This document shows positions 9,731 through 38,430 of a stretch of DNA of 38,430 bases, piece after piece. Every line of letters begins with the position of its first letter. Position 1 is the stretch's first letter. This DNA comes from Pyrinomonadaceae bacterium (lineage in GTDB: Bacteria; Acidobacteriota; Blastocatellia; Pyrinomonadales; Pyrinomonadaceae). The position numbers and the translations under genes are program-made. Location: the NCBI GenBank assembly GCA_036824525.1, contig DAITAB010000002.1, positions 1-38,430 of the forward strand, given 5' to 3'. The notes below the pieces were generated by a model. The model made no database searches, had not been told where the DNA came from, and saw nothing but the letters and a program-made list of their open reading frames with translations.

Positions 9731-9761
9731 GAAGAATATCGATATTCGGGAGAGTTTAAAC

Positions 9762-21643: not shown

Positions 21644-23377
21644 TTATTGGTCAATTTGTTTGACTGTCATCTTCTTTGACAAAGCCCGCGCGCCTTCCAA
21701 TGCCAACTGTTTTGCTTGCGGAAGTAATTCGACCGCCTGTTTCAACTGATTATCGTATTCATTGAAAACCTGATAGGAAGTCGTAGCGCCGTAAGCCGCG
21801 GTGACAAATTCCGAACGAAGCGTCCGCTGAATGAATTCGCGCTCACCGTCAATCTGCGAACCGGGAATTTTATACTCCTTAATCGCAAACTTTTTAAAGT
21901 TCTGAAAAAGCTCCTCAGTAATTGGAAAGTCTTTTTGAGTAATGTCGTGATCGAACTTTATCGGCGCGTCAATCTTTAGATTTTCAAAACCTTTCGTTCG
22001 ACCCACCGAAGTATCGAGTGCGAAAGCGAAAATGGGATCAGTTAATTTTTCCTGAATGCGAGCACGCTCAGCAGTGATAGTTGCCGGTCTTATTCCAAAA
22101 TCCGGCGCGATTCCACCGCCTCCATATACTAGACGTCCGGAAGCAGTTTTGCTTTCGGCGCCTTTTGGAGTCGACGGCTGATTTTCGTCGCGCAGCGTTC
22201 CGCCATTGCTGTAATAGTTGTAAAGATCGCCATTCGAGTAATCGCGTTGGATTAATCGACCGGCGGGTGTTTCATATTTTGCAATCGTCAACAACAGCAT
22301 CGAGTTGTATTCGAGTTGAAACGGATTTTGCACGAGACCTTTTCCGAAGGTTGTTTCGCCGACGATAAGCGCTCGATCGTGGTCCTGCAGTGCGCCGGCA
22401 AGAATTTCCGAGGCAGATGCGGTATAGCGATTAACCAGCACAACAATCGGAGTTTCATCCGGATTAGGATTCTCCGCGCGGAATACCCCAAAGGAATCTT
22501 CGAGCCTTCCTTTTTGAGTGAAAATCGTTTGACCTCGCGAAAGAAATGTATTTGCTACACGATACGCCTGACTGACCAGTCCTCCACCGTTGTTGCGGAG
22601 ATCCAGAATTAAGTTTTGCATTCCCTGGCGTTTTAACGCTTGCATCGATTCGCGAAATTCCATGTAGGTTGTTTGGTTGAATCCACCCGTCATGGCGATA
22701 TAACCGACTCCGGGTCGAATAATATACGCCTCGGGAATTGACGGCTGCGGAACGGCATCGCGAATAATATCGACGGTTTCGCGTGCGCCAGTTGCGAAAC
22801 GCTCAATGGTAATCTTTGCCAAGGTTCCTCTGGGACCGCGAAGAAAACTTCTGACTTCGGAGAATCTCTTGCCGACCATCGAAGTTCCATTAACCTCTAC
22901 AATTCGATCTCCATAACGAAGTCCTGCACGATGGGCGGGCGAGCCATCAAAGGTGGCTTTGATAAATGTAGCTAATACTTTCCCGTCCGCATCCCGAAGA
23001 TCACCGATCGTCGCGCCGATACCAAAATATTGTGAACTTTGGTCATTTCGAAACTGCTCCGCTTCTTTTGCATCGAAATAGTTGGAATGCGGGTCCAGCG
23101 TGTGGAGCATTCCGTCTATCGATGACTTAAAAATCTCGTTGTAATCAATCCTCGATCCATCAACGTGATTTTGCTGAATAAGTGTTAGCGCCTCGGCGAC
23201 ATTTTGGTCAATGGTTTCGATCGTAGTTGGCGGTCTTTTGGCGACGGTTTGAGAAATATCGCTTTGCGACTTAACCGGTTTAGGCGTACGTGGAGCGATT
23301 TGCGAGAATCCCGTGGAAACAAAACCGAGCGCAATAATTCCTGACAACATTAACGACATCATCGATTTCTTAAACAT
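21644..23377 (-). CDS. S41 family C-terminal processing (tail-specific) peptidase with PDZ domain, canonical catalytic motifs
   Basis: Canonical blocks DLRNNGGGLV, VNRYTASASEILAGAL and GETTFGKGLVQ. PDZ segment GIGATIGDL...ATFDGSPAHRAGLRYGDRIVEVNG. I prefer ATG 23377 (MFKKSMMSLMLSGIIALGFVSTGFS, signal-like); the track start 23467 adds 30 residues with no signal character. Confidence 0.85.
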   Translation of the reverse strand: MFKKSMMSLMLSGIIALGFVSTGFSQIAPRTPKPVKSQSDISQTVAKRPPTTIETIDQNVAEALTLIQQNHVDGSRIDYNEIFKSSIDGMLHTLDPHSNYFDAKEAEQFRNDQSSQYFGIGATIGDLRDADGKVLATFIKATFDGSPAHRAGLRYGDRIVEVNGTSMVGKRFSEVRSFLRGPRGTLAKITIERFATGARETVDIIRDAVPQPSIPEAYIIRPGVGYIAMTGGFNQTTYMEFRESMQALKRQGMQNLILDLRNNGGGLVSQAYRVANTFLSRGQTIFTQKGRLEDSFGVFRAENPNPDETPIVVLVNRYTASASEILAGALQDHDRALIVGETTFGKGLVQNPFQLEYNSMLLLTIAKYETPAGRLIQRDYSNGDLYNYYSNGGTLRDENQPSTPKGAESKTASGRLVYGGGGIAPDFGIRPATITAERARIQEKLTDPIFAFALDTSVGRTKGFENLKIDAPIKFDHDITQKDFPITEELFQNFKKFAIKEYKIPGSQIDGEREFIQRTLRSEFVTAAYGATTSYQVFNEYDNQLKQAVELLPQAKQLALEGARALSKKMTVKQIDQ

Positions 23378-23510
23378 TATTCCGAACATTTCTCCGTAGG
23401 CGGGAAGCCTCATAATTCTTGGTATAGTAACATTTGTTTGAGGCAAAGGCGACGAAAAGAGTTGCACGAACGCTTTGATTTATCGCAGACTCATTGGCGA
23501 ACGGCTACGC

Positions 23511-24521
23511 ATGAATTCACGCTTATTAGAAGTCCATAATCTACGAACGCATTTCCCCACCCGCGCCGGATTGGTGCGCGCGGTTGATGACGTAAGTTTC
23601 CACGTAAGCGAAGGCGAGCTTCTTGGTCTCGTCGGAGAGTCGGGATGCGGAAAATCCATTACTGCGCTTTCCGTGATGCGGCTGATTTCTTCTCCGGGCA
23701 AAATTGTCGGCGGATCCATTAAATTCAAGGGTGAAGAGTTAACAAACGTTTCTAACGAACGCATGCGCGAGATTCGAGGCAATGACATTGCGATGATCTT
23801 TCAGGATCCGATGACATCTCTGAATCCTGTTTACACAGTCGGCGAACAAATCGCCGAGGCGCTTCGTCTGCATAGAAAGCTCGACACGAATTCCGCCCGT
23901 GAAGCCGCGATCGCATCGATGAAGGAAGTTTCAATTCCTGATGCTGCTCGGCGCTTTGATGATTACCCGCACCAGCTCTCGGGTGGAATGCGGCAGCGCG
24001 TGATGATCGCAATGGCGCTTGCCTGCGATCCCGAATTGCTCATCGCCGATGAACCGACGACTGCGCTCGACGTAACTATCCAGGCACAGATTCTCGAGCT
24101 GTTAAATGAGCTCCGAAAAACGCGAAAACTCGCGGTGCTTTTGATTACTCATGATCTTGGCGTCGTCGCGGAAGTGGCTGATCGGGTGTGTGTGATGTAT
24201 ACGGGAAAGATCGTCGAGGAAGCACCGGTAAAAGAAATTTTCTCGCAGCCACGACATCCATACACTCAAGGTCTTCTGAGATCAGTTCCGAAGATGCGTG
24301 AGTTCGGCATTGAGAAATCCGTTCGGCTTCAGACGATTGAGGGAACTGTTCCGAGTGCCGCGACATTGCCCGCAGGATGTCATTTTGCGCCAAGATGTAT
24401 TCACAAAATGACGGCGTGCGAATTAGAGGAGATCCCCTTGCTTGATATAAACGATGAAGTCAAAGTGCGCTGCATCCTCTATGAGGGCGAGCATAATCGC
24501 CGGGTCGCCGCAAATTCCTGA
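23511..24521 (+). CDS. oppD: Oligopeptide/dipeptide-type ABC transporter ATP-binding protein (OppD/DppD-like)
   Basis: Walker A GESGCGKS, signature LSGGMRQR, Walker [13 protein letters not shown], and the Opp-type C-terminal Cys-containing extension ([10 protein letters not shown]). I prefer ATG 23511 ([11 protein letters not shown]) over the TTG track start 23475. Confidence 0.9.
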
Positions 24522-24542
24522 TCTTCTGAAGTTATTACTTAT

Positions 24543-25544
24543 ATGAATCTCGGAACCGCGATCTCAACCGAAAATTCCACGCTCGTGCGCGTACACGAGC
24601 TCGTGAAGCATTTTCCCGTTGAGGGAAGCAATGATGTCGTTAGGGCGGTCGACGGTGTTTCATTCGACATATTGAGAGGCGAAACGTTGGGACTCGTGGG
24701 TGAATCCGGCTGCGGCAAGTCCACGGTCGGGCGCTGTCTTATACGTTTACTCGAACCAACCAGCGGGGAAGTGTGGTTTGAGAATGTCGAAGTGTTGCAT
24801 CTCGATAAATGGAATCTGCGGAAACTCCGTAGTGAAATGCAGATAATTTTTCAAGATCCGTACGCGAGTTTGAATCCGCGTATGAACATTCTTTCGATAA
24901 TCGGAGAACCGCTGGCGATACATGGAATTGGAAGTAAGTCGGATCGCAAAGAGCGCGTCGGCGAACTTTTGAAAAAAGTCGGACTCGATCCGGATTTTAT
25001 GTTTCGCTATCCCCATGAATTCTCCGGTGGTCAACGACAGCGACTCGGTATCGCCCGCGCTCTGGCACTCAATCCAAAACTCATAATTGCCGATGAACCG
25101 GTTTCCGCATTGGACGTATCGGTTCAGGCTCAGGTCGTGAATTTGCTTCAAGACCTGCAAAGCGAATTCGGTCTTACGTATCTTTTTATCTCCCACGGGC
25201 TCGCGGTTGTCGAGCACATATCGCAGCGCGTCGCGGTAATGTATCTCGGAAAAATGGTCGAGATCGCGGATTCGCGCGCGCTTTATGAGAACCCGCTTCA
25301 CCCATACACGAAGGCATTGCTCTCAGCGATTCCAATTCCTGACCCGACGCGAAAGCGCGACCGAATCGTTTTGCAAGGCGACGTACCAACGCCGATCAAT
25401 CCGCCATCAGGTTGCAGGTTTCGAACGCGTTGTAACTTCGCGACCGAAGAGTGCGCGATGGTAATTCCGGAGCTTCGGCAAATCGCCGAAGGGCATTTTT
25501 CGGCGTGTATCAAAACACCAGGTTATGATCAGGGAAATACATAA
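24543..25544 (+). CDS. oppF: Oligopeptide/dipeptide-type ABC transporter ATP-binding protein (OppF/DppF-like)
   Basis: Walker [10 protein letters not shown], signature FSGGQRQR, Walker [13 protein letters not shown], and C-terminal [12 protein letters not shown]...[10 protein letters not shown]. Confidence 0.9.
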
Positions 25545-25618
25545 ACTTACTGCCGGCGTTTGTATTAGTAAGTTTTCGTAATAGAATTTGGCGGAATATC
25601 GGAAAGGAGACTGATTGA

Positions 25619-26419
25619 ATGGAACAAGAACGACCGGATTGGCAACCGCCACCGCCACCTGCAAGCGAGAAAAATACCGATGTAAACGCTCCACAAATGT
25701 CGGAGCTTTCGTCAATTTTAAATATCTTTCTGGAGCCTGGAAAAACATTCGAGTCTCTTCGGGCGCGTCCGAGATTTATTCTCGGCGGTATTTTGATAAT
25801 CATACTTGCATCGCTGTTTCAGTTCTTGCTGATCAACAAACTGGGTTTTGAGCATATCGTCAAAGAACGAATAAATAACAGTCCGGGTATGGAGAACGTC
25901 ACCGGCGAACAACGCGAGAAGATTATCGAACAGCAAAGTAGTCCGATTGCTCAGGCAATTGGTTATGCCGCCGTTCCGGTCGTCTCGGTGATTGTCTTTG
26001 CGATTGGTGGATTGCTTTACTGGCTAGGTGCAAACGCGATGGGAGGAAGTTCCACTTTTCTGCGCGGACTTTCTACCTGGATTTACTCGAGTATTCCGCC
26101 CGCCGTTGTAGGAACGTTCGCAAATATTGTCGTCTTATTTCTGAAAGCACCGGAAGACATCGACATCGTCTCAAGCAACCGCGGATTAATTCACGCAAAT
26201 CCTTCGATGTTTCTCGATGGAAGAGAAGCACCGGTGCTCGCCACGGTACTTTCAACTCTGGATCTTTTTTCGATTTGGGGATGGATTCTGGCGGCGATCG
26301 GTTTGCGCGTCGTTAGTAAAATTTCGAGCGGTGCCGCTTGGTCAATCGTAATTGGATTGACGTTAATCGGTCTCGCCGTTCGCGTCGTCTTCGCGGCTTT
26401 GTTCAAGGCGCCGATGTAG
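25619..26419 (+). CDS. Yip1-domain family membrane protein
   Basis: 266 aa. AAGGAG-type SD (GGAAAGGAGA) upstream. The N-terminal Pro-rich segment is followed by LNIFLEPGKTFESLRARPRF and five TM helices, the layout I associate with bacterial YIP1/DUF1282 proteins. Confidence 0.65.
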   Translation: MEQERPDWQPPPPPASEKNTDVNAPQMSELSSILNIFLEPGKTFESLRARPRFILGGILIIILASLFQFLLINKLGFEHIVKERINNSPGMENVTGEQREKIIEQQSSPIAQAIGYAAVPVVSVIVFAIGGLLYWLGANAMGGSSTFLRGLSTWIYSSIPPAVVGTFANIVVLFLKAPEDIDIVSSNRGLIHANPSMFLDGREAPVLATVLSTLDLFSIWGWILAAIGLRVVSKISSGAAWSIVIGLTLIGLAVRVVFAALFKAPM

Positions 26420-26425
26420 ATTTGT

Positions 26426-27688
26426 TCATTCGTAGCGGAGCGATTCGATCGGATCGAGTCGCGCCGCTTTCCACGCCGGAAACAACCCAAATATCAAACC
26501 AATGCCAACGCTCGCACAAAAACCCGCGATGGGCGCCCAGAGCGGCACATATGAGGGAATAATCATCTTCACTAAAAACGTCAGTAACCATCCGATTGCC
26601 AATCCGATCAACCCGCCGATTCCCGTAAGAGTTGCCGCTTCGATCAAGAACTGAAGAAGGATATCAAATTGTTTTGCGCCTATCGCTTTGCGGATTCCGA
26701 TCTCGCGTGTCCGTTCAGTAACGGAAACCAGCATAATATTCATCACGCCTATTCCGCCGATCATTAACCCTACCGAAGAAATCACAACCATCGCGACTGC
26801 GGTCATCGCAATAACTGAGTTGAATTGATCGATGATGCTTGCAGCGGTCTCCATTCCAAAATTATTTGGCTCGCCGAAGGGAACTTTTCGCCGGATGCGC
26901 AACAAATCCTCAATTTGATTCTTTGCTTCCTGAAGCCTCTCCGGTTTCGCAACCGCCAGAATAAACAAGTCATCGGCGTATGGCTTTAAACGTAATGCAG
27001 ATCCCATCGGCATATAAATGATGTTGCTTTGATCGTTATTTCCGCCCCCGCCGCCGAAGAGTTGTTCGCGTTTCTGTAGCGTTCCGATTACCGTGAACTC
27101 ATGCCCGCCTATTTCAAGCGTTTTTCCGATTGGATTTTCATAGGGGAAATAATTTTCCACCACCGATGAACCGATTACGCATACCATGGCTTTTTCTTCA
27201 TTTTCTGAAGGTGAAAACCAGCGTCCGTCAACGAGAATTTCCGTATCGGTTTTTTCTACGTCAGGAAAAGTTCCGTTTAGCTGGACGGCGGTAGAGGTCT
27301 TTCCGTTTTTTCCTGTTACCAGAAGTTTGGCGCCGAAGAAATTGTTTGAAATGTCGAGATAGGGAACCGCCACTTCCACCGAGGGAAGTCCGGAAATCGC
27401 GTCGGCATCATCCATCGTGAGTGGTTTTCGCATTCGCTCTTCGCGAGTCGGCGCACTCGTCCGGACGCCAATATCGAATTTGTAAAGAAATATCGAACGC
27501 GTTCCGAAAGACTCTATTTCTTTTTCAAAGCCTACTTGGATTCCGCTGATTATTGACGAAATCAACATCACCGTAACCACGCCGATAATCACGCCAATGA
27601 TCGTCAATGCCGAACGAAGCTTATTCGAACGAAGCGTATCCAACGCCATTCGGAAATTTTCGTAAAAGGTTCCACCGGCTGCAAACAT
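26426..27688 (-). CDS. MacB/FtsX-type ABC transporter permease (type VII ABC), subunit 2
   Basis: 420 aa with N-terminal LDTLRSNKLRSALTIIGVIIGV, a large periplasmic domain, then the FtsX-type motifs VSVTERTREIGIRKAIGA and FPAWKAARLDPIESLRYE. Confidence 0.85.
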   Translation of the reverse strand: MFAAGGTFYENFRMALDTLRSNKLRSALTIIGVIIGVVTVMLISSIISGIQVGFEKEIESFGTRSIFLYKFDIGVRTSAPTREERMRKPLTMDDADAISGLPSVEVAVPYLDISNNFFGAKLLVTGKNGKTSTAVQLNGTFPDVEKTDTEILVDGRWFSPSENEEKAMVCVIGSSVVENYFPYENPIGKTLEIGGHEFTVIGTLQKREQLFGGGGGNNDQSNIIYMPMGSALRLKPYADDLFILAVAKPERLQEAKNQIEDLLRIRRKVPFGEPNNFGMETAASIIDQFNSVIAMTAVAMVVISSVGLMIGGIGVMNIMLVSVTERTREIGIRKAIGAKQFDILLQFLIEAATLTGIGGLIGLAIGWLLTFLVKMIIPSYVPLWAPIAGFCASVGIGLIFGLFPAWKAARLDPIESLRYE

Positions 27689-27691
27689 AAA

Positions 27692-28927
27692 TTACTCCGC
27701 GCGAAGTGCCTCAATCGGATCAAGTTTCGCCGCCTTCCATGCCGGATACAATCCCGCCAAGACGCCGATCCCGCCCGACACTACAATTGCAAGCAAACCC
27801 GACAACAGCGAAATGCGGGTCTCAAGAAGCATTTGAGAGACAACTACTCCGAGTATTTTTGCCAGAATCAGTCCGATAATTCCTCCCGACAAAGCCAGAG
27901 TAGAAGCTTCAAACAAAAACTGCCGCAGCAAATCTCCTTGTCTCGCTCCCAAACTTTTTCGAATTCCAATTTCTTTTGTCCGCTCTGTAACCGAAACGAG
28001 CATGATATTCATAATGACGATTGCGCCAACGATCAAAGCGATTGAAGGAACCGCCAGCGCGATAATCGCAACGAGTCCGAAAATCCTATCGCGAATACCG
28101 GTGATCGCGTCGGGAGTCATTATTCCAAAGTTGTCTTTTTCGGAATATCCTAGTTTCCTGCGCGTACGCATAATCGTGCGCACTTCTTCTACGGCATCGT
28201 TGTAAAACTTGTCGTTTTTCGCCGTGACTTGGAAATAGACTCCGCGGCTTCTTGTAAGTCCGCCGAAGTTTGCGCCGTAAGTGCGTATTGGAAGCTGCAC
28301 GAAATTGTCCTGCGGCATTCCGAAGATCGTACCTTTTGCAACCTGAACGCCGACGACCCGGTAAGGAATTCCACGAACGTCAAGCTCCTGTCCGATTGCC
28401 GAACCTGTCGGGAAGAGCTTCGTTGCGACATCGGCGCCGATGAAAGCGACGCGAAGAGCATTGTTGTTTTCAACGTCAGTGAAGTATCGACCTTCCGCAA
28501 TATCAATTTTTTCAATCTCCGAAATGATCGGTTCGCATCCCTCGATTTTTACGTCGCGGAGCGTTTCGGTTCCGCGTTTCACCTCCGAAGAATTTGGCAA
28601 TGCCTTTACGCCGATTTTGTCTATCAACTGCGCCCGTTCGCGAATGTAATCACGTTCGGCAAAAGTGAGTTCTTTGTTCCTGCGCTGCGCCGCCGCAATC
28701 GTGTCAGTGTCTTTAAAGTCATCGAAATTGAATCGCCTCACTGTGAACGAATTTGAACCGACTCCTGCAATTTTTTCGTCGATGTAAGCATTAAATCCCT
28801 GCAGCAACGAGAAGACCAACATAAACGCCGTGACGCCGATGATCATGCCGAGCAACGTCAAGAACGAACGCAGCTTGTGAGCCCATATTGCCGCCAACGC
28901 CAGTTTTAATGTCTCGAGAATATTCAT
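27692..28927 (-). CDS. MacB/FtsX-type ABC transporter permease (type VII ABC), subunit 1
   Basis: 411 aa and paralogous to the downstream permease: AHKLRSFLTLLGMIIGV, VSVTERTKEIGIRKSLGA, YPAWKAAKLDPIEALRAE. There is a 3-nt gap to the next gene. Confidence 0.85.
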   Translation of the reverse strand: MNILETLKLALAAIWAHKLRSFLTLLGMIIGVTAFMLVFSLLQGFNAYIDEKIAGVGSNSFTVRRFNFDDFKDTDTIAAAQRRNKELTFAERDYIRERAQLIDKIGVKALPNSSEVKRGTETLRDVKIEGCEPIISEIEKIDIAEGRYFTDVENNNALRVAFIGADVATKLFPTGSAIGQELDVRGIPYRVVGVQVAKGTIFGMPQDNFVQLPIRTYGANFGGLTRSRGVYFQVTAKNDKFYNDAVEEVRTIMRTRRKLGYSEKDNFGIMTPDAITGIRDRIFGLVAIIALAVPSIALIVGAIVIMNIMLVSVTERTKEIGIRKSLGARQGDLLRQFLFEASTLALSGGIIGLILAKILGVVVSQMLLETRISLLSGLLAIVVSGGIGVLAGLYPAWKAAKLDPIEALRAE

Positions 28928-28948
28928 TCGACTGCCTAATAATAAACT

Positions 28949-29659
28949 CTAGCGAATATTTTCGCCTACACGAGCGAGCTTTATAAGGCTCGCAAAATGG
29001 CAAAAGAATACGATGGGAACAATGATCGTCGGCAACCAGATATAAGGTAAATACAAAACCGCGCGATTCGGTTGATCAAATGACATTTGCTGGAAAGATG
29101 ATTCAAGCGAAAGTGCAGCGTGAACGACTATATTCAAAACAAGGAGCAGCGCTAAGGAATTCCAGATGATCAACAATGTCCGATTTATTTTTCCACTGCG
29201 AAAAGCAAACCATGCCATTATCGGCGCGGTTATTCCCGCGAGGATGTCAAAATTTCGTCCTTCGAAGGTCATCACCTGCGGAATAAGTTTCGCACCGTAA
29301 AGCCACCAAAGCACAATCTCGACGGGAATTCGCATCGTGTGAATCCAGGTAAGCGGTCTAAGTTTTAGCCGCGAAATGAAACCATTTTGTCCGGTAATTA
29401 TCGCCGCAATCATTACAATTAACGACGGCAGAACGCCAAATACAATCAGGCGCGGCGGAAATCCGGTTTCGTCCAGATAGAATCCAAATGCCGCGAGAGT
29501 GCCGTAAAAAAGCAAACCGAACGGTAGTAGAAAAGAAATTGCTTTGGTTTGAAAAAGACTAAAGGCTCCGCGCTTCACTACATAAAGCAGAGTCACTACG
29601 GTGACCATTGTGGTAAGAAAAAACACAATGGAAACATACGATGGAACATTTTCGATCAT
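28949..29659 (-). CDS. Uncharacterised polytopic (about 7-TM) membrane protein embedded in the ABC exporter operon
   Basis: 236 aa, almost entirely hydrophobic helices (for example [67 protein letters not shown]). I recognise no family motif. Its ATG overlaps the stop of the upstream ATPase gene (ATGA, 29656-29659), and it lies 21 nt upstream of the permease. Confidence 0.6.
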
Positions 29660-30393
29660 CGTGTGCGTTCATCTTTCTCGATCTTTCCGTCCCGAATTGT
29701 AATCACGCGATGAGCCCTCGCAGCGATATCCTGTTCGTGAGTAACGACGATAATTGTATTTCCGTCCCGATTCAATTTCTCGAAGAGCTCCATGATTTCG
29801 TAACTCGTTTTTGTGTCAAGAGCTCCCGTCGGTTCATCGGCGAGCAGTATCGAAGGATGATTTACAAGCGCACGCGCAATCGCTACACGTTGTCTTTGTC
29901 CACCCGAAAGTTCGTTCGGACGATGCTTTGCCCGATCGCCAAGTTCTACTGAGATGAGCGTATCAGTTGCGCGCTGTATGCGCTCCGCCGAACGCATACC
30001 GGCGTAAATTAGCGGAAGCTCAACATTGTGGAGCGCGGTTGCGCGTGCGAGAAGATTAAACGTCTGAAAAACGAATCCGATTTCCTTGTTGCGAATTTGC
30101 GCAAGCTCGTCATCCGTCATGTCGGAGACCAGGTTTCCGTTGATCCAATATTCGCCTTTCGAAGGTGAATCGAGGCATCCGATCAAATTCATTAACGTGG
30201 ACTTTCCCGATCCCGATGGACCAATGATTGCTACGTATTCACCAGTTTTTACCTCAAAGGAAACATCGCGAAGTGCGTGCAATTCTTCATTGCCCATTTG
30301 GTAGGTCTTCCAAATGTTCCGCATGGAAATCAGAAGTTGCGGCGCAGCCGGTTTACCATTTGACGGATTTTGATTGTTGGAATCGGTTGACAT
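29656..30393 (-). CDS. ABC transporter ATP-binding protein (MacB/LolD-type stand-alone NBD)
   Basis: Walker [11 protein letters not shown]-loop FVFQTFNLL, signature [15 protein letters not shown], Walker [13 protein letters not shown]-loop VVTHE. Confidence 0.9.
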
Positions 30394-30416
30394 ATTTCTA
30401 TGAATTAACTCGCTGA

Positions 30417-31997
30417 CTATTTCGAACCGGTCGGAGTTTCTTCTTTCTTAACCTGAATCTTGACTACATCGCCGTCTTTCAAAGTTCGCAAAACGCGCGT
30501 AGGTCCGGTGATTACTTCCATACCTTCATTCAATCCGCTGGTAACCTGAATTTCGGATTCTCCCGTTATTCCTGTCGTTACTTCAACGAAGCGAACTTTT
30601 TTTCCGTCTAAAATATAGACGCCTTTTTGCGCCTTCGGTTTTTCGCCAGACTGAGAATCCGGTGTCGGAGTCGGTGAACCTTCTGCGTCCGATCTTTTTT
30701 CTATGACCGCCTGCAGCGGAACTGCAATCACATCGTTAACCGTCTTCGTATTTATCGTCGCAGTCGCGCTCATTCCGGGTCGAAGTCCTTCTTGGATCTC
30801 TTTTGGAAGATCTACCAACATTATCACGACGCGAAATTCCTTCGCCTCTTGCACGTTGATATTCACGGAAAGTCCGCCTTGCGTTTGTGACTTTCCGAGT
30901 GCCAAAGGAGTTTTTTGTGTAACTTCTCCCAACAATTCTGTCTCCGAAAAAGCGTCAACTTTTATTTTCGCTTTTTGCCCAACGGCAACTTTATCTATCT
31001 CAGTCTCGTCAACTTTGACCTCAATATTGATCAACGACATATCGGCAATCGTCATCAGTGCGGTGGTTGAAAGTCCCGCAACGGCAAAAGTTCCCACCTT
31101 AGACGGAATATCCGCCACGACACCATTAATCGGCGCTACGACGAGACTTTTGTCGCGTTGAGTCCTTTGTCCACGCAAAATTGCCGACTGCTGATTTACC
31201 CGACTCAAAACGGATTGCGCACTCATCGAGGCAGTTCCTACCGCGCGTCTAGAATCTTGAATCGCAACTTCCTGTTGTTTCGCGCGCGCCCGTGCTTCGT
31301 TTACTCGCGTTTCGGCTTCCTTCACCGCCAGCTGCTGAGATTTCAGCCGTGACTGTCGATTTCTCAGTGAGATCTCCGCTTGATCAACGCGATCTTTCGC
31401 CTGGTCATATTCGAGACGTGAAATCACCGCACCTTCAAGTAATTCCGCGGAGCGCTTTAATTCACGTTGCGCAATGAGCAAATCTTTCGCGGCGGAATCC
31501 ACGTCGGCTTGAGCTGCATCAACGCCTTGTCGCGCCGAAACAACTTGTTGCGATGCGGTATCAACCGAAGCAAGAGATGCGTTGTAGCTTTGTTGAGCTT
31601 GTGCGAGCTGATTTTGCGCCGCGGTAATTTGTGACTGCGCAACTTGAGAATCGCTCTGCGCCGCCTGAAATGCTGCCGATTGCGCGTCAGTGCTGGATTG
31701 AAGTTGTGTGGGATCGAGACGCACAAGCGGCTGACCCTTGGTAACCTGCTCGCCCTCACGGACGAATATTTCTTCGATTCGTCCCTGAACTTCACTCGTC
31801 TGATTTATGAATTGAACGGGTCGCACTTCGCCGGAGGCAACTACCGTCGAGCGAAGTTCGCGTTTTATGGCAAGTTTAACGACCGTAACTTCCGGCGTAT
31901 CTTTTCGCGTTGCCAAGACACTCGCTACGATAATTAATGCTAACGCCGCGATTCCGACCACACCGATAATAATTTTTTTCTTTTTAGTAAGAGCCAT
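30417..31997 (-). CDS. Efflux periplasmic adaptor (membrane-fusion protein, MacA/HlyD family)
   Basis: N-terminal TM anchor [25 protein letters not shown], lipoyl-like EVRPV...[24 protein letters not shown], a long Gln/Ala-rich coiled-coil hairpin, and a beta-barrel/MP domain. I prefer ATG 31997 (GAGGAA 6 nt upstream) over the TTG track start 32015. Confidence 0.85.
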
Positions 31998-32262
31998 TCC
32001 AATTTCCTCAAACAATAACTGGTATTGTGAATTCGGTTGGTATCAAAACGCAACTGCACACAACTTCATCGCACGGACTTGAATACGCCGAAAACCGTTT
32101 CAGTGTTTCAACTTAAGGCGATTCGCTTGCATAATAAATTGACTCCGTGATGAACTTCTTCATCAACCGGAGTGTATCTTATGGTGCATTTACGATTTGC
32201 GGGCAAAGGGTTAAAATAACCGCGAAGTTATTATCTTTAGCCGGATTACAACGGTTTAGTAA

Positions 32263-32853
32263 ATGACGATGATAAAATGTCGCGTCTGTCAGACGGAAAA
32301 TCTTGAAGACTCGCGCTATTGCGACGAGTGCGGAACCGTGCTCAATGGCACTGGCGAATCTTCGTCAGGTCCTTCGGCTCACAGTATGGAATTTAAAGTC
32401 ACGGATGACTTTCCCGCGTTTCGTTCCCACATCAAAACCATGGATGCTCCGTTGGCGGAGAGATCCTCTAGTAAGCTCGCAACCGGAGACGACAGCGAGA
32501 CACGCGGCGATTCGAATGGACTGGCATCGGCAAAACTTGAAATTGAGCGCGGTGGAACCGCCGGAACTCTTTTCGATCTATCACAAACGGAATCGCAGAT
32601 TGGACGTTGGGACGCGGACAACGGAATTTTTCCGGATGTGGATTTGGACGCCCACGATCCCGAAGCAAAAGTCTCGCGGAGGCATGCGCGAATTTTCGTC
32701 GAGAATGGGCGACACTTTATAGAGGATCTTGGCTCGACCAATGGAACCTTCATCAATCGCGGTCGCCGATTGATTCCTGGAGATAAACACCCGCTTTCCG
32801 ATAACGATGAGATTATCGTTGGAAAAACCTTCTTAAGATTTCGAATTCTTTGA
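32263..32853 (+). CDS. Zinc-ribbon (DZR-like) + FHA domain protein
   Basis: 196 aa. N-terminal CRVCQTENLEDSRYCDECG, a Ser/Asp-rich linker, and a C-terminal FHA: IGRWDADNGIFPDVDL...KVSRRHARIFVENGRHFIEDLGSTNGTFIN. Confidence 0.85.
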   Translation: MTMIKCRVCQTENLEDSRYCDECGTVLNGTGESSSGPSAHSMEFKVTDDFPAFRSHIKTMDAPLAERSSSKLATGDDSETRGDSNGLASAKLEIERGGTAGTLFDLSQTESQIGRWDADNGIFPDVDLDAHDPEAKVSRRHARIFVENGRHFIEDLGSTNGTFINRGRRLIPGDKHPLSDNDEIIVGKTFLRFRIL

Positions 32854-32872
32854 CCGAGCGAACGAGCAAGAG

Positions 32873-34723
32873 ATGACTGACTGTAAAGAATGTGGTTCGG
32901 AAGTATCTGACGACGCGCTTTTCTGTGGGAACTGCGGCGTCGCTTTCACCGCTTTCGCTCCCGAGAAGTCGGAGCGAAAGGTTGGCGCCAACAAGTCCTC
33001 GTCCGACTTGGTCGATGCTCCGTCCGAAGAAGTCCGTTCTGCAGATATTTCCGACTCATATTCAAAAACAGCATCGGAAATTTTACCGTCTGACCAAGAT
33101 GATCACCCGACAATTACGGACACGGATTTCTTCGACAAGGAAAACGACCTCCTTCGAACTAACCCGTCGGCTTCGTCGCCCATTGCAGAATCCTCAGATG
33201 AAGTTTCGCCGGAATCCCACGCAGACGAAAAGTCGTCAGCTTCTTCCGTTAACGTGACACCGGAGAATCGTTTCGACGATGCGACTTCGACGGAAATCTC
33301 CGATCAGAATTCTTTTACCACTCCTAACATTGCGGCTTCGGACACGGATGGAAAGAATCGTGCGACGTTGAAAACGCTTCAAGAAGGCGCGCTTCTCAAT
33401 GGGCGTTATGAGATCGTAAGAAAAATAGGCGGCGGCGGAATGGGCGCGGTTTACCTTGCACATGACCGCAACCTTGGCGGCATGGTCCGCGCGGTCAAAG
33501 AAATGGTGCAGTCGCACATCGACGAATCACAACAAGAAAAAGCCGTAGATGATTTCAGACGAGAATCGCTATTGCTGACGACGCTTGATCACCCTTCGAT
33601 TCCGACCATCTACGATTATTTTTTCGATGAAAGATCGGAGCGTTTTTATCTCGTAATGAAATACATTTCCGGAGGCGATTTGGCGTCGCGCCTGCGTGCT
33701 GTGCCGGAAGGTAGAATTGACGAGAAACAAGTTACCGATTGGGCTATCCAACTCGCTTCAGTGCTCGAGTATTTGCATAATCATGAGCCGCCGATAATAT
33801 ATCGCGACCTAAAACCATCCAACGTTATGATCGATGGCGTTACGGGAAGAGTGATGCTGGTTGATTTCGGTATCGCACGTTGGGTGAACAAAGATGAGCA
33901 GGGTGTTACGGCAATCGGGACAATGGGCTATGCGCCGCCGGAGTTATTTAGCGGAAATGTAGAACCGCGCTCGGATATTTATTCTCTCGGTTCCACGATG
34001 TTTCACCTTCTAACGGGTGCTGATCCGCAGAGTAACCCTTTGTTGATCTTTAATTTTGAAAAGAATCCGCGACCGCGCCAGATTAATCCGCAGCTGACCG
34101 ATCAAATTGAAGCTATTCTTGCGCGCGCGGTCGAATACGATGCTCATATGCGTTTCGCAAGCGCCGCTGAATTTCGTATGGCACTCGCAAAACACGCTTC
34201 CGATCTCAAGTCCGGTCGCGTTACCTTCGGAATAGCGACGCCGCAAAAGTCACCTTCATTCGAAACGCCGGTATTTTGTGGGTTTTGTGGGCAAAAAATT
34301 GTCGTGTCGGATGTATTTTGTCCATATTGCGGAGTAAGACAGCCTACACTCGCACAAGCAGGAGCAAAGCGTTTGGTTGGACGGAAAACGGCGCGTCTCG
34401 TCGTGCTTAATACGAATGAACTCGAGTCTCCGCAGATCGTTTTGGAAAAGGACGAGAATTTGATCGGACGTCGGGATCCGATCTCAAATATATTTCCGGA
34501 AGTGGATTTGTCTAAATTTGACCCGACTACTAAGGTGTCGCGTCGCCATGCGCGAATCTGGCGCCAAAGCGGTTCGTTTCTTATTGAAGATCTCGGTTCG
34601 TCTAATGGCACTTTTATTGTTAGAAAGGATACGATAAAACTTCTTCCGCGACAGCCTTGCGCACTCGTCAATGGCGACAAGGTGAGACTCGGTGATACGA
34701 CTTTGCATTTTGTGCTGAATTGA
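32873..34723 (+). CDS. Hanks-type Ser/Thr protein kinase with N-terminal zinc ribbon, internal zinc ribbon and C-terminal FHA domain
   Basis: 616 aa. CKECGSEVSDDALFCGNCG, then an acidic disordered region. The kinase core has the G-loop IGGGGMGAVY, Lys in RAVKEM, catalytic loop IIYRDLKPSN (YRD in place of HRD), VDFGIA and GTMGYAPPE. A second ribbon CGFCGQKIVVSDVFCPYCG follows, then FHA LIGRRDPISNIFPEVDL...KVSRRHARIWRQSGSFLIEDLGSSNGTF. Confidence 0.9.
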   Translation: MTDCKECGSEVSDDALFCGNCGVAFTAFAPEKSERKVGANKSSSDLVDAPSEEVRSADISDSYSKTASEILPSDQDDHPTITDTDFFDKENDLLRTNPSASSPIAESSDEVSPESHADEKSSASSVNVTPENRFDDATSTEISDQNSFTTPNIAASDTDGKNRATLKTLQEGALLNGRYEIVRKIGGGGMGAVYLAHDRNLGGMVRAVKEMVQSHIDESQQEKAVDDFRRESLLLTTLDHPSIPTIYDYFFDERSERFYLVMKYISGGDLASRLRAVPEGRIDEKQVTDWAIQLASVLEYLHNHEPPIIYRDLKPSNVMIDGVTGRVMLVDFGIARWVNKDEQGVTAIGTMGYAPPELFSGNVEPRSDIYSLGSTMFHLLTGADPQSNPLLIFNFEKNPRPRQINPQLTDQIEAILARAVEYDAHMRFASAAEFRMALAKHASDLKSGRVTFGIATPQKSPSFETPVFCGFCGQKIVVSDVFCPYCGVRQPTLAQAGAKRLVGRKTARLVVLNTNELESPQIVLEKDENLIGRRDPISNIFPEVDLSKFDPTTKVSRRHARIWRQSGSFLIEDLGSSNGTFIVRKDTIKLLPRQPCALVNGDKVRLGDTTLHFVLN

Positions 34724-34795
34724 GTTTCTGTAGCGTAGATTTTTTTTTGTGAACTCTGCCTCCGACTCCAAAGTTGCAGAATACTTTTTGAGAAT

Positions 34796-35317
34796 ATGAA
34801 TCCGCGAATCGAGACAACATTTCCGGTCGGGCATGCGACACAAAATGAAGTCGTACAAGGCTTTGATGCCCGGAAACTCCGTGCGCCGTTTTTGTTGCGT
34901 TTCGGCGCGTTGTTCATCGACTACATTTTCTTTCTCATTATTCCTGCGACAAGTATCATTCTCGGAAGACTTCTCGGATACGACGGTAGAAGATTGCTCG
35001 ATAGTGAGTTAACCAATACCGGTTGGCTCTTCGGAATTTTGTTGGCGCTTACAAACCTCGTAATTTTTCCGATGTTCAGCGGGCAGAGCGTCGGAAAGAT
35101 GTTGACGGGAATACGAATCGTATCGCGCGACGGTAAATCGCCAACATTTGCGACAATTCTCGTCCGGCATCTGGTTGGGTATCCCATAACGCTCGGAAGT
35201 CTCGGACTTGGATTTTTCGTTTCGTTTTTTAGTACTAAGGGACGAGCTTTACACGATCTCATCGCGGGAACGGTAGTTATACATGGAGTACCAAAACGCA
35301 AATTTAAGAATTTGTAA
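34796..35317 (+). CDS. RDD family membrane protein
   Basis: 173 aa with RAPFLLRFGALFIDYIFFLIIP (first R and D context), three TM helices, GKMLTGIRIVSRDG and ALHDLIAGTVV, the typical RDD layout. Confidence 0.8.
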   Translation: MNPRIETTFPVGHATQNEVVQGFDARKLRAPFLLRFGALFIDYIFFLIIPATSIILGRLLGYDGRRLLDSELTNTGWLFGILLALTNLVIFPMFSGQSVGKMLTGIRIVSRDGKSPTFATILVRHLVGYPITLGSLGLGFFVSFFSTKGRALHDLIAGTVVIHGVPKRKFKNL

Positions 35318-35341
35318 TATTCTTTTCTGGATCGACATTTT

Positions 35342-37003
35342 ATGCCGCAGATTGTCTTGAAACTTCCAAATCGTCCACCGGAATTTTTTCCTTTGGAAAG
35401 ACTTCGCACAACGATTGGGCGTTCTGCCCGGAGCGACATTTGTATCGCCGATGCCTTTGCTTCTCGGCTCCACGCCGAAATCCGACAGGAAGGCGATCGA
35501 TATTGGATTCAGGATCTCGGCTCTGCAAATGGGACAATTTACAACGGTGTTCCGATAACTTTGCCAGTTCCGCTGGCACCCGGCGGCGAAATTCGCATCG
35601 GGGAAACGATCCTTATGTTTCAGGATACCGGGGTTATTAAATCCACCGGTTCAACCATGATCGAGCAGAGTACGGATGCGCTCGATCCTTCAAAAACGAT
35701 TTCATTTTCAAACACCGCGATTTCCACCGGCGAAATTATCAGCCGTGAAATTTTTTCTTCGCAAAATGACCTGCTCGGATTGATCAGCAAAGTTGGAGTG
35801 GCGCTTTTATCCACAGCGGATCTTGAGGAAACATTGAATCAAGTAGCCGATCTTGTTTTTGAAGCGGTTCCTGCCCAGCGTGTGGTAATAATGCTGCGCG
35901 ACAAAGCTTCTGAAGGCGGATTGCGCGTGGCAGTTGCGAGGGAACGAGGCAAAGCTGAAGATCCGAAACACATTCGCATAAGCAGAAAAGTCATGACCGA
36001 AGTTTTGGAACACGGAAAATCGGTTCTTACTTCGGACGCTCAGCACGATCCGAAATTCGCCAGCCAAACAATGGCGCTCCTCGACATTCGTTCCGTAATA
36101 GCGGTTCCGCTTGGCGTTACGGATAAAGAAACTCTCGGATTGCTTTATGCCGATTCGCCTACCTTCGAAAAATCTCTCGAGGAAGACCATTTGAAACTGC
36201 TCACAACGCTCGCTTCCGTAGCATCGCTTCGGCTTGAAAAGGCGGCGCTGGTCGAAGAACGGATAATTCGCGATCGACTCGAACAGGAATTAAAGCTTGC
36301 TACGGAAATCCAGCAGCGTTTTCAACCACTCGCTCCGCCGAAGGTGGATGGATACGAGTTTCAAGGAATTAGTTTTTCCTGTTATGAAATCGGCGGCGAT
36401 TATTACGATTTCATCCAACGCGAAAAAGACAAGACGATCATCGCGCTCGGCGATGTTTCAGGTAAAGGAACAGCCGCCGCACTCTTGATGTCTTCGCTCC
36501 ATGCTGCGATTCACGCGCAGGTTTCCGCCGGTTCAACTATTGATGAAACCGTTGAATCCGTGAACTTTTATCTTTCGGCAAATACTCCTTCAAATCGATT
36601 CGTTACTTTGTTCTTTGGCGAACTCCAGGAATCAACCGGAAAATTACAGTACATCAACGCCGGGCATAATCCGCCCTTGCTGATTAGAGCAAGCGGAGAG
36701 GTGGAAGAACTCGAATCGAGCGGATTGCCATTAGGTATAGTCCCGGTCGCTGAATATCAGGTTTGGGATACGACTCTGAATCGCGGGGATGCTCTGATTA
36801 TTTATTCTGACGGAGTTTCCGAAGCAGTCAACGACAAGGGTGAGGAATTTGGAGTCGTCCGATTGACGGAAGTCGTAAAAAAAGGACACAAGAATTCTGC
36901 GGCGGGAATCCGGGATGCCATCGAATCAGGTCTCTCGCAGTTCACGCGAAATACACCGGCAAACGATGACATCACTCTGGTGATCGTAAAAAGACAAAAT
37001 TAA
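35342..37003 (+). CDS. FHA - GAF - PP2C (SpoIIE/RsbU-type) serine phosphatase
   Basis: 553 aa. N-terminal FHA (TIGRSARSDICIADAFASRLHAEIRQEGDRYWIQDLGSANGT), a central GAF-like region (LEETLNQVADLVFEAVPAQRVVIML...SVIAVPL), and a C-terminal SpoIIE-type PP2C with GGDYYDF, GDVSGKGTAAALLMS, NAGHNPP, IIYSDGVSEA and NDDITLVIV. Confidence 0.85.
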   Translation: MPQIVLKLPNRPPEFFPLERLRTTIGRSARSDICIADAFASRLHAEIRQEGDRYWIQDLGSANGTIYNGVPITLPVPLAPGGEIRIGETILMFQDTGVIKSTGSTMIEQSTDALDPSKTISFSNTAISTGEIISREIFSSQNDLLGLISKVGVALLSTADLEETLNQVADLVFEAVPAQRVVIMLRDKASEGGLRVAVARERGKAEDPKHIRISRKVMTEVLEHGKSVLTSDAQHDPKFASQTMALLDIRSVIAVPLGVTDKETLGLLYADSPTFEKSLEEDHLKLLTTLASVASLRLEKAALVEERIIRDRLEQELKLATEIQQRFQPLAPPKVDGYEFQGISFSCYEIGGDYYDFIQREKDKTIIALGDVSGKGTAAALLMSSLHAAIHAQVSAGSTIDETVESVNFYLSANTPSNRFVTLFFGELQESTGKLQYINAGHNPPLLIRASGEVEELESSGLPLGIVPVAEYQVWDTTLNRGDALIIYSDGVSEAVNDKGEEFGVVRLTEVVKKGHKNSAAGIRDAIESGLSQFTRNTPANDDITLVIVKRQN

Positions 37004-37045: not shown

Positions 37046-38430
37046 ATGCACAAAATCGAAAACTACATTGGCGGAAAACTGATTGCTCCGGTCTCCGGAA
37101 AATATCTCGACAATTTTAATCCCGCCATCGGTGCAGTTTATTCTCAACTTCCTGCCTCGGATATCCTCGATGTCGAAGCAGCAGTTGTTGCTGCCAAAGT
37201 CGCTCTGCCATCCTGGACAAAATCTTCCGCCGAACAACGTCACGATATCCTGATTCGAATTTCAAGACTCATCGAACGCGATATCGAATCGCTCGCAGAG
37301 GCAGAAAGCATTGATACCGGCAAGCCAAAATCGCTTGCGATGTCGGTCGATATTCCTCGCGCCGTTTCAAATTTCAAATTCTATGCGACCGCCACGATGC
37401 ACTTTGCATCGGAATCTCACGAAACAGTCGGGCAAGCGATCAACTACACGCTTCGCCAACCGCTCGGAGTCGTCGGTTGTATTTCGCCATGGAATCTTCC
37501 GCTCTATTTATTCACCTGGAAAATCGCGCCGGCACTTGCGGCGGGAAATTGCGTGATAGGAAAACCATCGGAGATCACTCCGATGACCGCGTATCTTCTT
37601 TCAAAAATCTGCATTGAAGCGGGTTTGCCGGCAGGAGTTTTGAATATCGTTCACGGACTTGGAACGCAAGCGGGCGCGGCGATCGTCGCACACAAGGACA
37701 TAAAAGCAGTTTCATTTACCGGAGGAACGAAAACCGGCGAAGCGATCGCGCGAACCGCGGCGCCGATGTTCAAAAAACTTTCGCTCGAGCTTGGCGGCAA
37801 AAATCCGAACATTATTTTCGCGGACTGCGATTATGAAGATATGCTCGCCACGACAATTCGCTCTTCGTTCTCCAATCAAGGACAAATTTGTCTGTGCGGC
37901 TCGCGGATTTTTGTCGAACGTCCAATCTATGAAAAGTTCCGAAGCGATTTTGTCGGACGGGTTTCGAGTTTGAAAATCGGCGATCCGCTGGATGCGGAAA
38001 CGAATATCGGCGCGGTGGTTTCGAAAGCGCACTTCGAAAAGATTCTGTCTTATATCGAACTCGCAAAAACCGAAGGCGGGAAAATTTTGTGTGGCGGGAA
38101 TTCCGTGAAGCTTTCGGGAAGTTGCGAAAAAGGTTGGTTTATTGAACCGACCGTGATCGAAGATTTGCCATTTGATTGCCGCTCAAATCAGGAAGAGATT
38201 TTCGGACCGGTCGTTTCGATAATGCCTTTTGATACGGAAGACGAAGTTCTGGATTTTGCCAACAGCGTCGAATACGGATTATCGGCTACGGTCTGGACGG
38301 AAAATCTTTCGCGCGCGCATCATCTCGCAGAGAAACTCGAAAGTGGAATCGTTTGGGTAAACTGCTGGTTGCTGCGCGACCTTCGTACACCATTTGGCGG
38401 AATGAAAAATTCCGGAATCGGGCGTGAAGG
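37046..38430 (+). CDS. Aldehyde dehydrogenase family protein (hydroxymuconic/aminomuconic-semialdehyde dehydrogenase-like), 3' end runs off the window
   Basis: Absent from the ORF track because it has no stop in the window. Hand translation from ATG 37046 gives MHKIENYIGGKLIAPVSGKYLDNFNPA..., WNLPLYLFTWKIAPALAAGNCVIGKPSE, FTGGTKTGEAI, LELGGKNPNIIF, catalytic Cys in NQGQICLCGSRIFV, and EEIFGPV...PFGGMKNSGIGREG. Confidence 0.85.
   Translation, partial: MHKIENYIGGKLIAPVSGKYLDNFNPAIGAVYSQLPASDILDVEAAVVAAKVALPSWTKSSAEQRHDILIRISRLIERDIESLAEAESIDTGKPKSLAMSVDIPRAVSNFKFYATATMHFASESHETVGQAINYTLRQPLGVVGCISPWNLPLYLFTWKIAPALAAGNCVIGKPSEITPMTAYLLSKICIEAGLPAGVLNIVHGLGTQAGAAIVAHKDIKAVSFTGGTKTGEAIARTAAPMFKKLSLELGGKNPNIIFADCDYEDMLATTIRSSFSNQGQICLCGSRIFVERPIYEKFRSDFVGRVSSLKIGDPLDAETNIGAVVSKAHFEKILSYIELAKTEGGKILCGGNSVKLSGSCEKGWFIEPTVIEDLPFDCRSNQEEIFGPVVSIMPFDTEDEVLDFANSVEYGLSATVWTENLSRAHHLAEKLESGIVWVNCWLLRDLRTPFGGMKNSGIGRE

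Follow-up and report, generated by a model that had tools for sequence, protein, structure and literature searches.

The window analysed here is a stretch of 38,430 nt on a metagenome contig of a Pyrinomonadaceae bacterium, class Blastocatellia, phylum Acidobacteriota (GenBank assembly GCA_036824525.1, contig DAITAB010000002.1, positions 1–38,430 of the forward strand), and the system in question is a four-gene signalling cassette at positions 32263–37003. The cassette consists of four open reading frames (ORFs) on the + strand: a gene for a small zinc ribbon (ZnR)–FHA protein (196 aa, 32263–32853); a kinase gene (616 aa, 32873–34723); a gene for an RDD membrane protein (173 aa, 34796–35317); and a gene for an FHA–GAF–SpoIIE/PPM phosphatase (553 aa, 35342–37003). 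The boundaries stem from the ORF list and the assignments from Pfam. An earlier note, made from the DNA letters, had described four co-oriented genes with gaps of 19, 72, and 24 nt, and the spacers in the ORF list match these values exactly. Its inventory of three FHA domains, a Hanks kinase, a GAF–SpoIIE phosphatase, zinc ribbons, and an RDD protein is borne out by Pfam—the first zinc ribbon scores below threshold with its Cys residues kept. Hydropathy agrees with the note in that membrane segments occur in the RDD protein only, and Pfam finds none of the output domains that the note had reported missing: the four cassette proteins lack DNA-binding, STAS, anti-sigma, secretion, and wall-synthesis domains alike. 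Throughout the window, ORFs of 150 aa or more likewise carry no STAS/GHKL anti-sigma, secretion-system, or wall-synthesis (rodA, pbp) domain. The GC content is flat across the region, and a terminator scan within the operon gave match counts equal to the shuffled expectation.

The small protein features a zinc ribbon (nt 32275–32340), a variable linker, and a C-terminal FHA domain (nt 32548–32841). The FHA domain is recognized by Pfam with 2.2e-16 and 60.5 bits against a cut-off of 20.7 bits; Zn_Ribbon_1 reaches 23.8 bits, slightly below its cut-off of 25 bits, and its four Cys are kept in 27 orthologues. In the same orthologues, zinc ribbon and FHA domain are near-invariant, in contrast to the variable linker. 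Among solved structures, ArnA (5a8i) gives the best sequence match (E = 1.3e-10). Since the FHA domain is 49% identical to the C-terminal FHA domain of the kinase and a zinc ribbon precedes each of them, the two ZnR–FHA modules are presumably duplicates of one another. All three FHA domains of the cassette belong to the phosphothreonine (pThr) readers of PF00498: the pThr-pocket residues GR, SRRHA/SRLHA (SxxH), and NGT are invariant in the orthologue alignments.

The kinase belongs to the Hanks-type Ser/Thr kinases (PF00069; Pkinase 3.4e-44, 151.6 bits). Its N-terminal part contains a zinc ribbon (nt 32882–32938), an acidic S/T-rich linker (nt 32939–33382), and the kinase domain (nt 33407–34153); its C-terminal part contains a second zinc ribbon (nt 34277–34333) and the FHA domain (nt 34430–34714; 1e-12, 48.7 bits vs the 20.7-bit cut-off). 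Zn_Ribbon_1 is matched with 34.4 bits over two stretches, with CxxC...CxxC motifs from residues 4 and 469. The linker of 152 aa has an S+T content of 26%, including 14 Thr. Invariant in the kinase are K209 and D312; the motifs GGGGMG, AVKEM, YRDLKPSN, and DFG; and the activation loop GVTA[VI]GTMGYAPPELF. Neither hydropathy nor Pfam indicates a transmembrane (TM) segment or an extracellular part, and the kinase is taken to be soluble because hydrophobic segments are confined to RDD among the four proteins. It is the most conserved member of the cassette: its core shares at least 48% identity with the window kinase in every locus listed, and the best 120 matches of a distant query stay at or above 58%. 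The N-terminal zinc ribbon is absent in several lineages outside the Pyrinomonadaceae-like clade. A pTxxI-like motif, SFTTPNI, before the kinase domain was considered as a family feature and dropped, being limited to close relatives.

The phosphatase belongs to the SpoIIE/RsbU-type PPM family (PF07228) and is matched by SpoIIE with 1.3e-49 and 169.3 bits against a cut-off of 25 bits, by FHA with 1.7e-18 and 67.3 bits, and by GAF with 1.5e-13. The FHA domain (nt 35342–35626) is followed by the GAF domain (nt 35819–36232) and the SpoIIE/PPM domain (nt 36425–36994). An AlphaFold2 model with a mean predicted local distance difference test (pLDDT) of 74 places the FHA domain at residues 1–95, a disordered tether at residues 98–139, and one continuous helix at residues 281–327 (nt 36182–36322) that runs from the GAF domain into the PPM domain. 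Both active surfaces are intact throughout: the FHA residues G26, R27, S41, and H44 and the metal-binding residues D353, D371, D490, D542, and D543 are invariant in 46 sequences with identity down to 29%. An identical phosphatase sequence occurs on two short metagenome contigs. The architecture FHA–GAF–SpoIIE is common, with more than 130 clusters at 50% identity, and no study of it was found in the literature searched. Outside Blastocatellia—in Aminicenantes, Planctomycetota, Solibacter/Bryobacterales, and Latescibacterota—it occurs without the genes for the small FHA protein, kinase–FHA, and RDD. In six sampled loci of other phyla the homologues adjoin vWA (L043, L059; L numbers denote related loci) or Hanks-kinase (L074) genes, and no STAS or anti-sigma gene lies beside them. 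The vWA gene follows FHA–GAF–SpoIIE directly in the Planctomycetota loci L043 (11636–12883) and L059 (8507–9691), an arrangement that recalls the ArnA/ArnB and Deinococcus FHA/vWA pairings. A possible paralogue of the window phosphatase was seen in L025, a Pyrinomonadaceae metagenome-assembled genome: a 948-aa FHA...GAF–SpoIIE ORF (8408–11251) that is 57% identical to residues 142–551 and has no kinase or RDD gene within 8 kb upstream.

The RDD protein (PF06271; 3.7e-18, 66.6 bits vs a cut-off of 24.1 bits) carries residues R35, D42, and D154, which are invariant in 42 sequences. Its AlphaFold2 model (pLDDT 75) features three TM helices, at residues 32–59, 71–95, and 118–145, and a small hairpin. 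A fold search of this model against the PDB gave no match below E = 0.09; the top matches, the TM domains of peroxisomal Pex2/10/12 with TM scores of 0.42–0.51, were not interpreted. In the three clades outside the Pyrinomonadaceae-like one, RDD usually has its own N-terminal zinc ribbon and a linker of about 100 residues. The earlier note had considered RDD as a target of the kinase, and an N-tail Thr that looked invariant in three sequences was a candidate docking or phosphorylation site; it is not conserved in 28 sequences and was rejected. Because the N-tail phospho-acceptor is not conserved, a role of RDD as anchor or sensor is more plausible than one as a conserved substrate. For one RDD member, a role as Na+/H+ antiporter has been claimed (PMC5996927). 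The role of the family is still stated as unknown; a conserved intramembrane site is reported to face the cytoplasm, and RDD is reported to be often fused to the lipid-modifying VanZ (PMC12419801).

Related loci came from three sources: look-ups of exact proteins and their precomputed Pfam annotation; a GTDB species-genome scan with a 15-sequence phosphatase alignment; and a metagenome-contig scan with a kinase alignment. Where sources are named, the homologues come from Pyrinomonadaceae, Blastocatellia, or Acidobacteriota metagenome-assembled genomes. A simple neighbour-joining tree of the kinase core orders the loci into four clades, and collapsing the kinases at 97% identity leaves 96 non-redundant loci besides the window. 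Among the matches listed, and counting as testable the loci whose flanks are long enough, the small FHA gene precedes the kinase gene in 89 of 90 testable loci, an RDD gene follows the kinase gene in 78 of 83, and a phosphatase gene comes after those in 77 of 78. The gene order is the same in all loci listed, with spacers mostly of tens of nt (often 10–50) or with overlapping genes, as for RDD and phosphatase in L022. The gene set therefore recurs in about 100 related loci, well beyond this genome, which was the test of co-occurrence that the earlier note had set. Because gene set and order co-occur in relatives, the cassette is, as judged by these comparisons, a vertically inherited unit across the class Blastocatellia. 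Searches for RDD with FHA and kinase, for FHA with GAF and SpoIIE, and for Acidobacteria with FHA found no paper describing it, most subscription journals lying outside the search; the idea that the module had not been described before thus stands for the literature covered.

Several lineages add genes to this core. A TPR protein gene lies between the RDD and phosphatase genes in at least 17 non-redundant loci. In at least six, a gene for a fusion of a PrsW-family membrane protease with FHA directly follows the phosphatase gene, which brings four FHA domains into one gene string; this fusion is a candidate effector of the cassette in the single clade where it is found, with examples in L086 (13421–14731), L109, L112, L113, L116, L135, and L147. 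A fusion of a Hanks kinase with a classical PP2C domain (about 560–600 aa) precedes the cassette in the lineages of L027, L089, L092, and L094–L096, with coordinates 2220–5397 in L027, 6330–8135 in L089, and 5894–7570 in L092; in the L027 type, a vWA gene follows. The cassette is co-directional behind mreC-mreD-pbp2-rodA-RNase E/G (rng) in L088 (75–7921) and behind pbp2-rodA-RNase E/G in L092 (1–5456), within the flank available there. A recurring pattern is that several FHA-tagged enzymes are encoded around one kinase.

Upstream, the cassette is transcribed divergently from an exporter operon on the − strand (26426..32015), which is a neighbour rather than a proven part of it. By Pfam and NCBIfam this operon encodes a MacB-type tripartite exporter: a membrane fusion protein (MFP; 30417–31997 from ATG, or to 32015 from the listed TTG); an ABC ATPase (29656–30393); a polytopic membrane protein of 236 aa (28949–29659, from the ORF list); and two different MacB_PCD/FtsX permeases (27692–28927 and 26426–27688). 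The ATPase is a separate polypeptide whose best NCBIfam matches, MacB and LolD, lie below equivalog cut-offs, and there is no outer-membrane factor gene inside the operon. The distance to the cassette is 247 nt from the listed TTG of the MFP and 265 nt from the ATG at 31997 common to all orthologues, in line with the divergence across about 250 nt from a five-gene MacB-type operon that the earlier note had given. The 236-aa protein has about six hydrophobic segments and no Pfam or NCBIfam match; homologues occupy the same place in L004, L009, L010, and L013 and are absent from L003, L007, and others.

Of the 66 testable non-redundant loci among the matches listed, 35 have a divergent MFP gene at most 2.6 kb upstream of the small FHA gene; they belong to three of the four kinase clades. 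The exporter is near-universal in the Pyrinomonadaceae-like clade, L022 being the exception, and sporadic in two deeper clades (L113, L089, L103). In these three loci, the MFP is 39–42% and the ABC ATPase 71–72% identical to that of the window; because the cassette proteins have diverged to a similar degree, the deep-lineage MFP and ABC proteins are probably orthologous to those of the window. In L011, L020, L089, L103, and L113, MFP and ATPase genes adjoin the cassette with no MacB-type permease gene adjacent. In the remaining loci, the upstream place is taken by unrelated genes, among them ATP sulfurylase, a pair of cyclophilin and UDP-glucose dehydrogenase, RNase G preceded by mreCD-pbp2-rodA, and vWA together with the kinase–PP2C fusion. 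The downstream flank of the cassette differs between almost all loci. The spread over clades, the probable orthology, the variable opposite flank, and the retention of MFP and ATPase without permeases argue that the pairing of cassette and exporter is old and not random. Since unrelated genes occupy its place elsewhere, the exporter is an old but dispensable neighbour.

The intergenic region keeps two separate promoter-like blocks. A predicted sigma-70-like promoter of the signalling operon (TTTACG, 17 nt, TAAAAT; 32189..32217, + strand) comes from a consensus scan, and its hexamer blocks ATTTACG.. and TA.AAT are kept across the aligned intergenic regions of 18 relatives; match and conservation together point to a promoter, as a predicted rather than a mapped start. 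On the exporter side, TTGAAAC ... CGTA (32080..32111, − strand) was found in the intergenic alignment, where TACG-N-GTTTCAA is kept in at least 80% of 19 aligned regions and suggests −35/−10 elements. A palindromic operator shared by the divergent operons was considered and, with two separate blocks kept, rejected. A tandem ATTTACG ATTTACG-like repeat at 32180–32200 overlaps the −35 region of the signalling promoter and is kept in one subclade; the other subclade keeps a different block, TTTCGCG.TA.AAT.

Taken together, these features probably describe a self-contained pThr writer/reader/eraser cassette, vertically inherited within Blastocatellia, with RDD as its membrane partner. The RD-type kinase would autophosphorylate on Thr in its invariant activation loop and probably also in the variable acidic S/T-rich linker, and the three FHA domains would read these pThr sites. 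The C-terminal FHA domain of the kinase and its paralogue on the small adaptor would assemble or stabilize the active state, and the FHA domain of the phosphatase would dock the eraser on the same sites, resulting in negative feedback. The phosphatase is most likely the cognate eraser of the cassette kinase, FHA-docked and GAF-gated, as suggested by the intact pThr pocket, the near-obligate linkage to the kinase, and the lack of a STAS gene nearby. Its activity would be set by the GAF domain via the helical linker, as described for dimers of RsbU-type PPMs, and one input may therefore be a small ligand. RDD would tether or inform the soluble components at the inner membrane face, and the zinc ribbons may help in this contact because the RDD of deeper lineages carries one too; that ribbon lends some support to the zinc-ribbon-mediated recruitment proposed in the earlier note, which is otherwise still speculation. 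The regulated target would be encoded outside the operon, with the neighbouring MacB-type exporter as the leading candidate in this genome, and the lineage-specific additions (PrsW protease–FHA, TPR, and the pbp2-rodA context) point loosely to the cell envelope.

A number of points weigh against this reading. The classical substrates of SpoIIE-type PPMs are phospho-STAS proteins, and a partner of this kind may exist elsewhere in the genome. No Thr outside the activation loop of the kinase is conserved family-wide, be it in the RDD tail, the linker of the small FHA protein, or the kinase linker. L103 has no adjacent phosphatase gene, and RDD is absent from the Chloracidobacterium-type lineage and from L088, so RDD is not essential to the core. 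Both AlphaFold2 models are of moderate confidence (pLDDT 74–75), the domain maps of related loci are based on naive ORF calling with phmmer, and the locus counts are samples, drawn from the matches listed by both collection scans.

The closest functional precedent is DRA0331–DRA0334 of Deinococcus radiodurans, which comprises a vWA protein, a Ser/Thr kinase, a FraH-like FHA protein, and an FHA–PP2C phosphatase (10.64898/2026.01.23.701218). A 2026 preprint describes it as a push–pull system and a self-contained control unit: the FHA adaptor is reported to enhance phosphorylation by the kinase, and the FHA-phosphatase to counteract it (10.64898/2026.01.23.701218). Common to both operons are a Hanks kinase, an FHA adaptor that stands on its own, and a phosphatase bearing an N-terminal FHA domain. 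The window differs in three respects: RDD takes the place of vWA; the kinase is soluble and has two zinc ribbons and its own FHA domain; and the phosphatase is of the SpoIIE/RsbU type with a GAF sensor instead of a plain PP2C. A second precedent is Sulfolobus ArnA/ArnB, a zinc-finger–FHA protein and a vWA protein controlled by the kinases ArnC/ArnD and the phosphatase PP2A. The small protein is built like ArnA, with a four-Cys zinc module at the N-terminus and, after a linker, an FHA domain at the C-terminus, although the match is limited to about 55 FHA residues and the archaellum gene expression output has no counterpart in the window. Of the ZnR–FHA and vWA pair, only the ZnR–FHA architecture is present: vWA is absent from the window and, among the related loci listed, occurs only in the L027-type lineage (L027/L094–L096). 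The statement of the earlier note that the cluster is unlike known FHA/kinase/phosphatase modules was thus overstated, since its logic is that of DRA0331–0334 and ArnA/ArnB and two relatives lie behind mreCD-pbp2-rodA-rng. The PpkA/PppA/Fha1 module of the type VI secretion system is a different matter: TagH reaches 46.8 of the 120 bits needed, and no genes of that system are present in the window. Combining a kinase, FHA readers, and an FHA-docked phosphatase in one operon is hence a logic with precedents in other phyla; what is new comprises the RDD partner, the putative FHA–GAF–PPM eraser, the multiple zinc ribbons on soluble components, the class-wide conservation, and the old dispensable exporter pairing.

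A tentative alternative, which refines the output of the cassette rather than excluding the writer/reader/eraser reading, is that the cassette switches the neighbouring exporter, with the ATPase or the MFP tail being phosphorylated and read by FHA. The precedent, in which PknF of Mycobacterium tuberculosis controls the FHA-bearing ABC exporter Rv1747 (PMC3138270), shares with the window a Hanks kinase, FHA domains, and an ABC exporter encoded side by side. It differs in that the FHA domains of the window are on separate proteins—the exporter subunits have none—and in that the exporter is MacB-type tripartite, divergent, and missing from about half of the related loci. The exporter link put forward in the earlier note is therefore upheld in part: the pairing of MFP/ABC with the cassette in nearly all of the Pyrinomonadaceae-like clade and in the deep loci L089, L103, and L113, the highly variable other flank, and the loci in which MFP and ATPase alone remain all speak for it, while 31 of 66 testable loci listed have unrelated upstream genes and no conserved Thr was found in the MFP tail or the N-extension of the ATPase in orthologues. 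In addition, the exporter has its own conserved promoter block with no shared operator evident, and the synteny of the Pyrinomonadaceae-like clade runs beyond the exporter to Yip1 and Opp-type ATPases, so adjacency there may merely reflect a stable block. More doubtful is a Blastocatellia counterpart of the actinobacterial PknA/B–FhaA/B–PstP system, that is, a housekeeping regulator of envelope growth or stress in which RDD senses a membrane or lipid-linked intermediate from the cytoplasmic side and the targets lie elsewhere. The actinobacterial cluster fhaA-fhaB-pstP-rodA-pbpA-pknA-pknB likewise unites FHA readers, a PPM phosphatase, and Hanks kinases in a lineage-wide locus, and the class-wide retention of the cassette, its very strongly conserved kinase, and the same-strand position behind pbp2-rodA in L088 and L092 fit such a role. 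So do the PrsW–FHA fusions, an SLT transglycosylase (L022) or SPOR–SpoIID (L086) nearby, and the cytoplasm-facing intramembrane site and VanZ fusions of RDD (PMC12419801). Yet these envelope contexts are lineage-specific and anecdotal, without an enrichment statistic; the kinase has neither PASTA domain nor TM segment; phosphatase family and sensors differ; no wall-synthesis gene lies near the cassette in the window; and the scores stay below the NCBIfam equivalog cut-offs (PknB_PASTA 194 vs 450 bits, FhaB 57–72 vs 125 bits). Kinase layout, gene content, and scores together place the cassette outside the Fha/PstP/Pkn division-wall cluster.

Two further explanations are less likely still. That the phosphatase is a conventional RsbU/SpoIIE partner-switching enzyme, acting on a phospho-STAS protein encoded elsewhere and merely co-transcribed with an unrelated kinase/FHA pair, is improbable. 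The SpoIIE match of 169 bits and the closest solved relative, the partner-switching protein Rv1364c, would suit it, as would the GAF–helix–PPM layout known from stress-response phosphatases: one long helix joins GAF to PPM as in RsbU/RsbP/RsbZ-type PPMs (PMC12143880). A coiled-coil mechanism of dimer-based activation was demonstrated with RsbU, and the same has been put forward for PPMs joined to GAF, PAS, or receiver domains (PMC12143880). Unlike these types, however, the window phosphatase bears an additional FHA domain, attached by a disordered tether, and is coupled to a Hanks-kinase gene; the intact pThr pocket of this domain argues for docking on Hanks-kinase products, and the linkage to the kinase holds in 77 of 78 testable loci listed. 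No STAS or anti-sigma gene was seen in the window or beside homologues in the six sampled loci of other phyla, hence no RsbU/RsbV/RsbW-type module is present within the window. Highly improbable is a kinase-based anti-phage defence system. The kinase domain does match the Ser/Thr-kinase models PD-T4-6 and mad6 of PADLOC (E down to 6e-61), and NCBIfam MADS6 and PglW are matched below cut-offs, but these similarities are generic, and the other three proteins have no PADLOC match, so no known defence system of that collection is recognized. The vertical inheritance, apparently single copy per locus, and class-wide conservation in housekeeping synteny are the opposite of a mobile defence island, and the flat GC content adds to this.

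An extended version of the writer/reader/eraser reading assigns RDD a leading part and is, as a joint claim, unlikely. Here, RDD would be an intramembrane, cytoplasm-facing sensor of a lipid-linked or membrane ligand that signals to the soluble kinase via zinc-ribbon and FHA/pThr contacts, and the pThr scaffold would recruit FHA-tagged effectors: the GAF-gated phosphatase, the PrsW protease in some lineages, and the exporter ATPase/MFP. The cassette would thereby be the master Ser/Thr switch of Blastocatellia. If true, this would be the first defined signalling role for RDD and a sensor logic for Hanks kinases without a membrane domain. Blastocatellia, including Pyrinomonadaceae, abound in soil, yet hardly any experimental genetics exists for them. 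The cassette is among their most conserved signalling units and offers a defined entry point. Should RDD act as sensor or anchor, a function would be assigned to a large family; should the exporter or the PrsW–FHA protease be an output, a new route would lead from Ser/Thr signalling to envelope transport or proteolysis.

The remainder of the window carries further genes. Directly 3′ of the cassette, an aldehyde dehydrogenase gene starts at 37046 and exits the window end (37046–38430); its position is not kept in relatives, and a second aldehyde dehydrogenase gene lies at 8303–9730. Two PDZ–S41 (Ctp-type) peptidase genes are located at 12671–13954 and 21644–23467, and an ORF of 377 aa at 14534–15667 has no Pfam match. 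At 23475–26419 (+ strand), two OppD/OppF-type ABC ATPases with oligo_HPY are followed by a Yip1-domain membrane protein, with no Opp permease or binding-protein gene adjoining. The arrangement of ABC ATPase genes followed by Yip1 also occurs in L011 and L012, and Yip1 alone stands beside the exporter in many relatives.

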